64,000 nucleotides of DNA from a virus (taxonomy: Duplodnaviria; Caudoviricetes), in the IMG/VR virus record IMGVR_UViG_3300010167_000010, positions 128,001 through 192,000 of that record. One strand, 5' to 3'. The translations under genes were made by a program, and so were the position numbers. The first letter of the stretch is position 1. The number at the start of each line of letters is the position of its first letter. This document shows, one piece after another, positions 26,998 to 30,831 of this stretch. Under the pieces are notes generated by a model. It searched no databases. It was given only the letters and a program-made list of their open reading frames with translations, and was not told the DNA's origin.

Positions 26998-29085
26998 ATG
27001 TTTCAATTTGGAAAAATAAAAACGACTGAAAAACCTAAACAAAATCTCGAAAAATTTGATTGTTTATTAAAAGAAAATTATCAACCAGGAGAAAAATATT
27101 TCTTATTTCTGGTTGATGATATTTTACATAAAGCTTATCTTGATCTTTTAATAAAAGATATAGAAAAATCTGGAATTAAATCGTATAATATTGTATCAGC
27201 AATTTCTATTAAAACTCCAAAAGAAGAATCTACAGAATATTTATTATCTGTAGAAAGTGATTGGAGACGGTATATAGAATTTAATTCTAAGTGTGATGCA
27301 ATAATTGCATTTGGTTCAGTAGTTCGTATATTAAATAAATCTGCAGATGTAACTTATTATGATTTTATTGAAGATAAATTTAATAAACCTCGTTATTTTT
27401 GTGGTTCAGAATTTGTAAATGGACCAGATTGTTGGATTTATCCAGTGGCAAGTGTCAAAGATTTATTTCCACTTCATCACGGCCAAAATGATCCAACAAA
27501 TTTTTTAACTCGTATTTTTAGAGAAAGATTAAAAAGAATACAAAAAGATGATTTATCTTTTAAAGATTTAGATTTAAGAGATTATAATATAATTTATGTA
27601 GATAATAAAGAAGATACTTCAAAATATTTAAGAGAATTAGTAAATGCAGATTTATTAGCTTATGATTCTGAAACAGATGGATTAGATTTTAATAAAAATA
27701 TAATTGGAACAGCTCAGTTATCGACTGATGGTATAAACGGTTATATATTTGAATGGCAAAATATAGATAGAAGATTACTTAAACAAGTTTTAATTACAGC
27801 AAAAAGAATAACAGGATCTAATTTAAAGTTTGACTGGAAATTTATGTGGAAGCATGGAATATCTCGTGATATAAATTTTACAGATGATATAACTTTATTA
27901 TCACATGCAATAAATAGTAATCGTTCTAAAGGTTTAAAACCTGGTGCAATATTTTATGTTGGAAAATTTGTAGGTTATGATTTAGAATTAGATAGAATAA
28001 GAAAAAGATTAAAAGTAGAAAACTTTTTACAAATACCAAAAGATATTTTAATTAAATATGCAGGATTAGATCCAATAGTTGCTTGGCGACTCCAAGTAGC
28101 ATTAGATAAACATGTTAAATGGATAGATAAAAATATTCCTAATGAAAAAGATTCTTCTTGGACAATAGAACGTTGGTATAAAGAAGTAATGATTCCAAAT
28201 GCTATTTGTGTAACTAATACCGAATTTGATGGAATTTATTTTAAGCCTGAGATATTTGATGAGTCAGAAAAAATTATTAAAGATAAAATAGCAGAATTAA
28301 AAGCTGAATTAGTTAAAGAGTGGAATGTACCTGAAACTTTTAAATTTGAATCTACTAAAGAATTAGGTTTATTATTTAAACATATGGGTTGGCCACTCAT
28401 TTCTGAATCTAAAGCTGGTGGTTATGCAACGTCAGATGCTGTATTAAATGAATACGAACTATTAAAATTACCTGGAATAAAACAATTAAAAGATTTACGA
28501 TCATATAATGTTGCGCTTAAAACATTTATTGAAGGTTGGAAAAAATGGATTATTAAACATCCAGATGGGACTTATAGAATACATCCATCTTGTAATACAT
28601 TTGGAACTGAATCTATGCGACATGCAATGAGAGACCCAAATTTTCAACAAATACCATCTGGTTCAGTAATGGCGAAACTTATTAAGAAATTGTTTGTAAC
28701 ACCACCAAATATTAAAGATGATTTAATTGGTGAGTCTAGTAAATCTGAATGGCTTATGGTAACTGGCGACTTTGCATCATTACAGTTTAGATTAGCATTA
28801 GCTGATAATGGTTTAAGTAAAGGTGGTGTAGATAAAATTGCATATGAAATTTATGATTCAGATACTGGTCATAAAGACGCTCACAGTGCTACAACATTAG
28901 GAACGTTTTGTAAACCAATTCATTTTCAAATTATAGAAATTGAAGATGAAGAAGGTAATAAAATAATTTTTGGTGAAGAGCAAAAAATAAAAATTAAAAG
29001 ATTGGGTTTAATTGACGATAACGAAGAAATTATTATTAAAGGAAAAGAATTTCAAGCAGATGATATATTTTTGGAGCATGTATGA
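26998..29085 (+). CDS. Family A DNA polymerase, N-terminal part (UDG-like, 3'-5' exonuclease, polymerase through motif A)
   Basis: AYDSETDGL (ExoI), NLKFD (ExoII), YAGLD (ExoIII), RIHP..N..GT...R....PNFQQIP, GDFASLQFR (motif A), DAHSATT; motifs B and C absent. Confidence 0.9.
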   Translation: MFQFGKIKTTEKPKQNLEKFDCLLKENYQPGEKYFLFLVDDILHKAYLDLLIKDIEKSGIKSYNIVSAISIKTPKEESTEYLLSVESDWRRYIEFNSKCDAIIAFGSVVRILNKSADVTYYDFIEDKFNKPRYFCGSEFVNGPDCWIYPVASVKDLFPLHHGQNDPTNFLTRIFRERLKRIQKDDLSFKDLDLRDYNIIYVDNKEDTSKYLRELVNADLLAYDSETDGLDFNKNIIGTAQLSTDGINGYIFEWQNIDRRLLKQVLITAKRITGSNLKFDWKFMWKHGISRDINFTDDITLLSHAINSNRSKGLKPGAIFYVGKFVGYDLELDRIRKRLKVENFLQIPKDILIKYAGLDPIVAWRLQVALDKHVKWIDKNIPNEKDSSWTIERWYKEVMIPNAICVTNTEFDGIYFKPEIFDESEKIIKDKIAELKAELVKEWNVPETFKFESTKELGLLFKHMGWPLISESKAGGYATSDAVLNEYELLKLPGIKQLKDLRSYNVALKTFIEGWKKWIIKHPDGTYRIHPSCNTFGTESMRHAMRDPNFQQIPSGSVMAKLIKKLFVTPPNIKDDLIGESSKSEWLMVTGDFASLQFRLALADNGLSKGGVDKIAYEIYDSDTGHKDAHSATTLGTFCKPIHFQIIEIEDEEGNKIIFGEEQKIKIKRLGLIDDNEEIIIKGKEFQADDIFLEHV

Positions 29086-29924
29086 AAATAATTAGATCTA
29101 AAATTATAGGTTTTTGTCCTGGAGTGTCTAATGCAATAAATAATTGTTTTCCTAATTCTATATGTTTAGGAGAAGTAATTCATAATAAAGCAGTTATAGA
29201 TAGATTAAAAGATTCTATAACCTTTATAGAAGAAAATAAAATTGAAGATTTTATAAAAAATGAAAATTATAAAAATAAAGAAATAATAGTAAGAGCTCAT
29301 GGTATATCTCCTAAATTAGAAGAAATATTAAAAAGTAGGGGTGCTCTTATTAGAGATAATACTTGTCAAAATATTAAAAAGGTTCAAAATATAATTTTAC
29401 AAAATAAAAGTAAATATAAAATAATTTTAATTGGAGATAGAAAACACCCAGAAATAAAAGGATTAAGAGAATATGATGATAATTGTTTAGTAGTAAATTT
29501 TGTAATGGAAATTGAAAATACTATAAAAAATATAATAAAAAGTTGTCCAGAAGATCGTCTTATGATTATAGGACAAACTACTTTTAAGAAAAGTTTATAT
29601 GATTATTTTTGTAGTTTATTTATTAAATACAAAGGAAATAAAAAAATTAAAATTATAGATTCTTTATGTTCAGAAACAGTTAAAAGACAAAAAGCTCTTA
29701 AAAAATTAGAAAAGAAAGTAGATGCTATTTTAATAATTGGTGGGCATAATTCGGCCAATACTAATCAATTAAGAAGTTTATGCTCTAAAACTTCGTGGGT
29801 TATAGAAAATAAAAATCAAATTCCATCAATGATAAAACTTTATAATACAGTTGGATTAGCTTCCGGCGCCTCGACGCCAGAATGGCTTGTAGATGAGATA
29901 GAGAATACTTTAAAGTTAATATAA
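29082..29924 (+). CDS. ispH: 4-hydroxy-3-methylbut-2-enyl diphosphate reductase
   Basis: GFCPGV, IHN, RAHG, DNTC, HPEI, QTT, LC, GGHNSANT, GASTP; all three Fe-S Cys present. Confidence 0.95.
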   Translation: MKIIRSKIIGFCPGVSNAINNCFPNSICLGEVIHNKAVIDRLKDSITFIEENKIEDFIKNENYKNKEIIVRAHGISPKLEEILKSRGALIRDNTCQNIKKVQNIILQNKSKYKIILIGDRKHPEIKGLREYDDNCLVVNFVMEIENTIKNIIKSCPEDRLMIIGQTTFKKSLYDYFCSLFIKYKGNKKIKIIDSLCSETVKRQKALKKLEKKVDAILIIGGHNSANTNQLRSLCSKTSWVIENKNQIPSMIKLYNTVGLASGASTPEWLVDEIENTLKLI

Positions 29925-29928
29925 GAAT

Positions 29929-30831
29929 ATGTATAAGATAACTAAAAGAGAAATAACTTTACAAGATTTTTTATCTCTTAAAAAATATACTCCCTTTAAA
30001 GGAATGAGATTTAATGGGAAAACTGTAGGATTAGCAACTCTTTTTGCTTGTCAGGGTCCGACTCTAGGTCGTCAAATGAAAGCAGCTGGGTTTTCTGAAG
30101 ATGATTGTGATATGGCAATGGATAGTTTTAATTTAACTACTGCATATAATACTGCAAAAAATAATCCATCAAATAAATTATCAGACGTAGACTTAAAATA
30201 TGTAATTATTGGAAATAAATTAAGAGAATTATTTTTCAAAACTTATCCCTCATTACTAGAGCGTGTAGAAAGAGAACAAAAGTTCGCAATTAAACATGGT
30301 TATGTTAGAACTTGGACAGGACCTGTAAGACATCTTCCAGAATTAAGATACTTATCTAAAAATGCACAAAATAATTTAATAGGTTTAGATAGAAAATTAT
30401 ATTCTAAAATGTATTCTGGATTAAAAAATGAAGCTAGCAACACTACAATTCAAACAGCAGAAGTTTATCATGCTGCACCAGATGTAACTTGTGTATATGA
30501 ACATCTTAAAAAATGGAATTTTAATACTCGTATTTTTAATTATGTACATGATGATATAGAATTTTATATTTATAAACCAGAGAAAGCTGTAGTATATGCT
30601 TTATTAAATGAGATTGCAAAAATATGTAGAAAACCATATTATGGAATACCAATGGAAATAGAAGTAGATGAAGCTGATCCAGATAAAAAAGAAATATTTA
30701 AGGCTGGTAGAGAATTAAATATTGGAAAATATAATTTGAAAAAAGAATTAAAAAAATGGAATGAAGAAAATGGAACTGAATTAGAATTTATAAATACAAT
30801 TCCCGGAGGCTTTTACTCTGATGAAAAATAA
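29929..30831 (+). CDS. Family A DNA polymerase, C-terminal part (motifs B and C)
   Basis: RFNGKTVGLATLF (motif B), FFKTYP, GYVRTWTG..R, NTTIQ, YVHDD (motif C); own class M promoter. Confidence 0.9.
   Translation: MYKITKREITLQDFLSLKKYTPFKGMRFNGKTVGLATLFACQGPTLGRQMKAAGFSEDDCDMAMDSFNLTTAYNTAKNNPSNKLSDVDLKYVIIGNKLRELFFKTYPSLLERVEREQKFAIKHGYVRTWTGPVRHLPELRYLSKNAQNNLIGLDRKLYSKMYSGLKNEASNTTIQTAEVYHAAPDVTCVYEHLKKWNFNTRIFNYVHDDIEFYIYKPEKAVVYALLNEIAKICRKPYYGIPMEIEVDEADPDKKEIFKAGRELNIGKYNLKKELKKWNEENGTELEFINTIPGGFYSDEK

Follow-up and report, generated by a model that had tools for sequence, protein, structure and literature searches.

How does a DNA polymerase remain functional when its gene is cut beside the catalytic motifs? 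This question is raised by a locus at positions 26,998 to 30,831 of a 64,000-nucleotide (nt) stretch (the window) covering positions 128,001 to 192,000 of the IMG/VR record IMGVR_UViG_3300010167_000010, a complete 329-kilobase (kb) genome of a Caudoviricetes phage with direct terminal repeats. Three co-oriented, abutting open reading frames (ORFs) were found there on the plus strand, at 26998-29085 (695 amino acids, aa), 29082-29924 (280 aa) and 29929-30831 (300 aa). The outer two encode the halves of a family A DNA polymerase (PolA), designated polA-N and polA-C, and the middle one is ispH. A first-pass annotation, made from the letters of the window and their ORF translations, had proposed that an intein was reduced here to a non-splicing, acidic/basic heterodimerization module in a two-subunit PolA. 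This proposal was supported by structural models whose closest matches are inteins, a break at the split-intein site, the absence of the catalytic residues, and the charges of the two ends. Our best explanation, to which we assign a probability of roughly 0.6, is a two-chain PolA held together by a non-covalent, Hint-derived clasp formed by a tail on the first chain and a head on the second.

The polA-N gene (26998-29085, +) encodes an N-terminal domain, the 3'-5' exonuclease, the thumb, palm motif A, the first fingers helices and the tail; Pfam assigned DNA_pol_A_exo1 to residues 199-373 and DNA_pol_A to residues 420-571 (profile positions 4-150). Motif A (DFASLQFR; 28768-28791, +; motif coordinates were computed on the window) is followed by the DAHSATT helix (28876-28896, +), the last canonical PolA element ahead of the break. 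The polA-C gene (29929-30831, +) encodes the head, the O-helix with motif B (R..GK...L...F; 30007-30057, +), the remaining fingers and palm motif C (YVHDD; 30541-30555, +), and matches DNA_pol_A profile positions 239-374. Both halves exceed the Pfam curated cut-offs, and together they contain the polymerase and 3'-5' exonuclease domains and motifs A, B and C with the catalytic Asp. As the first-pass annotation had stated, the gene is cut between DAHSATT (28876-28896) and motif B (30007-30057); in a distant unsplit PolA (L019), only about 10 residues and no insert lie between these elements. The locus has the features of fragmented phage genes, namely separately translated pieces and lineage-specific extensions that flank the break and are missing from the unsplit L019. 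The active-site motifs of the window polymerase (28768-28791, 30007-30057 and 30541-30555) are unusual: motif A has Gln at the position of Klenow's steric-gate Glu, Leu and Phe stand in for Phe762 and Tyr766 of Klenow in motif B, and motif C reads HDD.

In the 329-kb genome, PF00476 matched the polA-N and polA-C pieces only, and searches of the complete genome for PolB and Pol III alpha found neither. The split PolA is the sole recognizable polymerase of the genome. Because no other polymerase was found, it is very probably the replicative enzyme of the phage and has to work. A sequencing or assembly artifact, or a pseudogene, was considered and rejected, as the split is conserved in at least 8 phages with differing junction layouts.

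The break is bordered by two extensions. The tail of polA-N (28909-29082, +) is 58 aa long, close to the approximately 55 aa previously estimated, has a net charge of −7, and is predicted to form five beta-strands resembling the C-terminal half of an N-intein, judging from AlphaFold2 models, structural searches, charge and conservation. The head of polA-C, MYKITKRE (29929-29952, +), had also been read correctly, as the ORF translation showed; the C chain begins with 8-9 such extra residues, with a net charge of +2 in the window. The head is predicted to form a beta-strand (residues 99-104 of model 1, described below) at the place of the first strand of a C-intein, where the structural alignments continue through it. 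Over nine junctions, the net charges ranged from −1 to −11 for tails and from 0 to +5 for heads.

In six relatives the tail showed 60-76% identity, compared with 61-67% for the rest of their sequence, suggesting that it is under purifying selection and conserved as strongly as the enzyme body. A tail profile built from ten tails was searched against 1.84 billion representative proteins (E-value below 1e-3) and retrieved 34 clusters, all with the match at the extreme protein C-terminus except for three repeat-rich proteins that look like false positives. Conservation in six relatives and in these 34 clusters indicates that the tail is not a chance extension. Most of the matches were proteins of 95-144 aa in which an M-x-K-I-x-K head is followed by motif A, a D-x-H-S-x-T helix and the tail; judged by this arrangement, they are middle pieces of polymerases cut again just before motif A. 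The same short head was present at the start of 14 of 15 C-part clusters. The survey of relatives for intact split inteins at this break that had been suggested revealed neither a fused form nor an intact intein: all 15 C-part clusters had the short head or less, with no longer C-intein-like extension or intact C-intein, and no fused PolA-C form of 526-2000 aa was found, which is weak evidence. At the motif-B site the module was split in every cluster found (approximately 30), always at one identical point. MAFFT repeatedly placed the tails (28930-29010) on the end of PolA-C (30646-30740), at the last palm hairpin P-M-E-I-E-V-D-E..., which may be a chance likeness of acidic beta-hairpins or a real relationship.

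Two AlphaFold2 models were built. Model 1 used the in-frame arrangement of the related phage L014, read through its single TAA, and contained 28 residues of the fingers helix, the tail, an 11-residue spacer and residues 1-48 of the C chain. Model 2 contained the 86 C-terminal residues of the window's own polA-N with 22 homologs, the artificial join being removed. In the folding alignment A5, the last three tail residues were misplaced. In model 1, the tail formed five strands (predicted local distance difference test, pLDDT, 81-92) and the head a sixth. The comparison with Hint domains by Foldseek that had been proposed gave nothing significant with model 1, although the highest-probability matches were inteins and hedgehog Hint domains. 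In an exhaustive VIA-align search of model 1 against 48,161 PDB representatives, Hint domains occupied the first 16 places and 27 of the 44 matches. The first 10 matches of model 2 in an exhaustive structural search were all inteins. The superpositions on inteins had root-mean-square deviations (rmsd) of 1.5-1.9 Å over 46-50 residues. The models predict a three-dimensional Hint fold for the module.

The alignments begin at approximately intein residue 41-77, and those of model 2 reach residue 96 in Npu DnaE-N (101 residues), 86 in gp41-1 and 106 in NrdJ-1. The tail would correspond to the second half of an N-intein, ending at the natural split point. The alignments of model 1 extend 10-16 residues further than those of model 2, through the head, which would give the head the position of the first C-intein strand. 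On these models, the break falls between blocks B and F, where split inteins are canonically divided, and the N-fragment is the acidic partner and the C-fragment the basic one. An ESM Atlas search with the window tail returned proteins that are PolA fragments by their features, as well as ATP-cone/BTB-like models at template modeling (TM) scores below 0.5.

The smallest working inteins have roughly 125 or more residues. The module comprises 58 + 8-9 residues with canonical PolA helices directly on both sides, so that blocks A, F and G are absent: neither the N-terminal ~45 residues of block A nor the C-terminal ~25-35 residues of blocks F and G are present. The first residue of the tail is Cys in about half of the family and otherwise Val, Ile, Met, Tyr, Phe or Gly, and no nucleophile is conserved there. 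The position of block B reads G-E-E-Q, with a conserved Gln and neither the Thr nor the His of TxxH. The heads (M-Y-K-I-T-K-R-E) continue into the polymerase without an Asn + Cys/Ser/Thr pair. The module departs from an intein on five defining features. Without blocks A, F and G and without any of the splicing residues, the module is not expected to splice, and the chains would stay non-covalently joined. The first-pass annotation had reached the same conclusion from the replacement of TxxH by GEEQ and the lack of a terminal HN-C/S/T, and the sequence comparison agrees with it.

Immediately ahead of motif A, a second site of the polymerase was found to carry a homologous module (hhalign probability 92%, E 7e-7, 43 columns). 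It is absent in the window's clade and in P0021. In P0023, P0043 and P0034 it is conserved and uninterrupted within one chain; no viral or metagenome contig encoding P0034 was located. In other relatives, including the phages G001 and G005, it is split, giving three-piece polymerases. Specifically, G001 (386 kb) has its N gene near 196 kb, its middle gene near 43 kb and its C gene near 218 kb, and in G005 (301 kb) the corresponding genes are found near 198, 72 and 76 kb, on different strands, so that pieces are 20-150 kb apart. The N piece in both phages ends in a tail related to the window tail by hhalign, and the next piece again starts with a basic head. By these profile comparisons, the module is not confined to the window's break, and since it also occurs as uninterrupted single-chain copies, it must have some state besides clasping split pieces. 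In G001 and G005, the distances between the pieces and their different strands rule out that these are rejoined on the RNA or by the ribosome.

Several further observations were made around this second site. Just before motif A (28699-28767), the polymerase of the window's clade has about 14 extra residues (N-I-K-D-D-L-I-G-E-S-S-K-S-E) relative to P0021 and L019, which could be the scar of a deleted module. In G005, the middle piece is preceded by a NUMOD3/HNH-like ORF (H-H...H) and an N6-methylase-like ORF (L022 378-1016 and 898-1470), and the C piece is followed by a Cys-rich HNH-like ORF without a Pfam match (L023 896-1330, minus strand); mobile endonucleases may have moved these polymerase pieces. 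The NUMOD3/HNH-like ORF was the only endonuclease-related case among the junctions compared. The middle piece of G001 lies directly upstream of a DnaG-type primase gene (Toprim + CHC2 zinc finger; L010 355-1491, minus strand), far from the other pieces.

Assembly of the window enzyme can be pictured as follows. The 58-aa acidic tail and the 8-9-aa basic head would form a truncated, non-catalytic Hint piece; they would meet by charge and then fold into one small beta-domain, as the fragments of natural split inteins do. The head strand would complete the sheet of the tail and thereby tether the chain carrying the O-helix to the chain carrying the exonuclease, the thumb, motif A and the first fingers helices, after which the ordinary fingers/palm interface would close around the active site. 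The module would be the fossil of an intein that once resided at a conserved polymerase site, and the events would have followed the order of intein invasion, loss of splicing, truncation, gene separation and capture of cargo (ispH). Three observations fit a needed assembly device: the tail is under purifying selection, the break point is constant, and polymerases with scattered pieces have survived. We infer not only the clasp function but also that tail and head pair, that assembly needs the module, and that the module descends from an intein.

A number of points weigh against this explanation. All evidence on the fold comes from AlphaFold2 models calculated from shallow alignments (23-28 rows), and model 1 links the two chains by reading through a stop codon. 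Of the at least 125 Hint residues, only about 65 are present. The tail profile retrieved no intein, only noise, from PDB sequences at E <= 10, the tail matched no Hint family in Pfam at E <= 10, and PF14890 was not found in five related phage genomes (G000, G001, G003, G004 and G005). The uninterrupted one-chain module of P0023, P0043 and P0034 can persist without a clasping role. Moreover, the large native interface between the two halves might suffice for their assembly when the module is missing, as is the case for the fragments of Aeh1 NrdA (PMC3045599).

The last two points favor the idea that the module is an accessory insertion domain of the fingers/palm with another job, irrespective of where it came from, such as an interaction with DNA, a clamp, a helicase or a host factor, in which case the breaks would fall in an exposed loop and the ordinary interface would hold the chains. 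The uninterrupted, conserved copies before motif A, selection on the tail as strong as that on the enzyme body, and the finding that the Aeh1 NrdA tails are unneeded for heterodimer formation (PMC3045599) are consistent with such a role. However, all of the approximately 30 clusters with a module at the motif-B site are cut at one point, equivalent to the split-intein site, the charge pattern is that of split inteins, and no known binding motif was seen, so we regard an accessory domain as unlikely. A different origin of the tails is a more doubtful proposition still: they might stem from mobile-element DNA or have arisen de novo and converged on a beta-hairpin clasp, their likeness to Hint being generic and amplified by the predictor. 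Inteins, however, hold the top 16 and the top 10 places among 48,161 chains in two separate models, with an rmsd of 1.5-1.9 Å over 46-50 residues and alignments that stop at the split point of three natural split inteins. In addition, both insertion sites abut catalytic motifs, where inteins typically home.

Ligation of the two chains into a one-chain enzyme, through non-canonical trans-splicing, a joined mRNA, frameshifting or bypassing, appears very improbable. The halves in L014 are in frame across one TAA and 30 nt, those in L001 overlap by 8 nt, and T4 gene 60, which lies beside an analogous module, is annotated as using translational bypassing. Nevertheless, the Phe just ahead of the tail is not followed by a conserved nucleophile, TxxH and the Asn + Cys/Ser/Thr pair are lacking, the head is only 8-9 aa long, the junction architecture differs in every phage, and the pieces in G001 and G005 are far apart on opposite strands.

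The gap between the two halves in the window is occupied by an intact ispH/lytB gene (29082-29924, +; Pfam LYTB PF02401, E 1.7e-61, profile positions 1-266 of 267), in line with the earlier description of the spacer as a metabolic gene instead of a nuclease. By eye, its cluster-binding Cys residues are present in the contexts GFCPG, NTCQN and SLCSE, and the protein is at most 30% identical to any match in phage or species-genome collections. Microcystis phage MaAM05 and some contigs of gut phages are among the few other phages with an ispH gene. Four related phages (L001, L005, L013 and L014; 61-66% identity) have the same break without ispH, and among the phages compared only the window phage has ispH at the junction. 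In L001, nothing lies between the genes, which overlap by 8 nt, the polA-N stop and the polA-C start sharing a single ATGTATAA. In L014, the genes are 30 nt apart and in frame, with a single TAA. The gap of L013 contains a 52-aa ORF (L013 8080-8242) and that of L005 two small ORFs of 112 and 78 aa (L005 8057-8628), none with a Pfam match. No homing endonuclease gene was found in the gap, neither in the window with its ispH, nor in L001 and L014, which are empty, nor in L005 and L013 with their small ORFs. Because these four relatives share the break with other gap contents, the break is ancestral, and ispH is a later insertion (cargo) with no role in the split. The first-pass annotation was right that the halves flank ispH, but the break predates that gene. 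With different small ORFs in different phages, the polymerase junction behaves as a gene-insertion hotspot.

In the window, ispH is flanked by an 8-nt repeat, of which the left copy, ATGTATGA (29078-29085, +), contains the polA-N stop and ispH start codons, and the right copy, ATGTATAA (29929-29936, +), lies at the polA-C start. Such a repeat pair would be expected if a cassette had landed in overlapping stop and start signals and both genes had kept theirs. The proposal that polA-C has its own promoter at 29915-29923 was not upheld: a promoter scan gave 35 sites compared with 34.1 expected from shuffled sequences, none of them at that position, which holds a −10-like AT-rich string that includes the ispH stop codon and ends 6 nt ahead of the ATG. 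No terminator-like site was found between the genes in the scan. A promoter or terminator between the polymerase genes was rejected, as nothing exceeded chance. The simplest reading is a single transcript that carries three translation starts; polA-N, ispH and polA-C are probably transcribed together and translated separately.

Among known systems, natural split inteins offer the structural reference. The predicted tail and head of the window superpose on the central Hint fold of the Npu/Ssp DnaE, gp41-1 and NrdJ-1 split inteins. As in these inteins, the break occupies the position where inteins are canonically split or carry an endonuclease insertion, an acidic N-fragment is paired with a basic C-fragment, an M-x-K-I-type strand opens the C-piece, and the insertion sits beside catalytic motifs of a replication enzyme. 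The 'fractured genes' of split inteins were described by Dassa et al. (2009; PMC2677866), and split-intein fragments associate by charge and then fold together (cited in PMC3045599). Unlike these inteins, the window module has about 65 residues, lacks blocks A, F and G, Cys/Ser at position 1, TxxH and a terminal Asn + nucleophile, has no match to a Pfam or PDB profile and no endonuclease in the gap, and would stay in the mature enzyme.

The T4 gp39/gp60 bracket and the Aeh1 NrdA tails are the nearest experimentally studied cases. In T4, the 'TOPRIM insertion' is a module of approximately 70 aa shared by the two chains gp39 and gp60, resolved by cryo-electron microscopy (8YO3) and called an assembly bracket (PMC11461880); inteins are not mentioned in that paper. 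The T4 gap contains a defective HNH endonuclease gene (mobA), whereas the window gap contains ispH. A split beta-module of this kind also seems to be present in the T4 gp39 tail together with the gp60 head (MKFVKI...; L024 3778-5328 and 2458-2990). Comparison of the gp39 tail with the module profiles by hhalign was not significant. The chain 8yo3_C aligned to both module models across the gp39/gp60 junction, with low Z.

The tails of Aeh1 NrdA-a and NrdA-b, whose genes flank mobE, are essential for activity, and a degenerate split intein was raised as one of their possible origins (Crona et al., 2010; PMC3045599). Both systems involve a fragmented essential gene with oppositely charged, lineage-specific tails at the break. 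In Aeh1, however, the polarity is reversed (a basic C-terminal and an acidic N-terminal tail), the gap houses an endonuclease gene, the step influenced by the tails is the dimerization of heterodimers, and no fold is known. Furthermore, Aeh1 NrdA represents one site in one phage, whereas the window module belongs to a conserved family at two sites. The OM43 phages MEP401 and MEP402 have PolA in two ORFs with small ORFs of unknown function between them, and an intron was suspected (PMC10580990); no tail/head module was described there, in contrast to the window. No description of a truncated Hint remnant serving as a non-covalent fastener was found in the open-access literature.

A wider and more tentative reading, which we place somewhat short of even odds, is that minimal (~65 aa), catalytically dead split-Hint modules have become heritable protein fasteners at two catalytic-motif sites of the sole replicative polymerase in one clade of jumbo phages. 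The two or three genes of the enzyme would thereby have been able to separate by 20-150 kb and to acquire cargo, ispH being one example. T4 gp39/gp60 and Aeh1 NrdA may follow this principle too; in that case, the decay of split inteins would be a general way for phage genes that mobile elements have broken to remain functional.

Split PolA genes were already known in other phages (PMC10580990). If the clasp is real, the module would be the first intein fossil for which structural arguments point to retention for binding instead of splicing, and it would answer the question of where the 'assembly tails' of fragmented genes come from, left open by Crona et al. (2010). A replicative family A polymerase made of two or three separately encoded chains, cut beside motifs A and B, bears on the folding and engineering of polymerases. 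The 58-aa and 8-aa elements would constitute a natural, non-covalent, charge-steered pair and, together with the diverged second version, a candidate orthogonal heterodimerization tag. The junction itself would be a readable evolutionary record.

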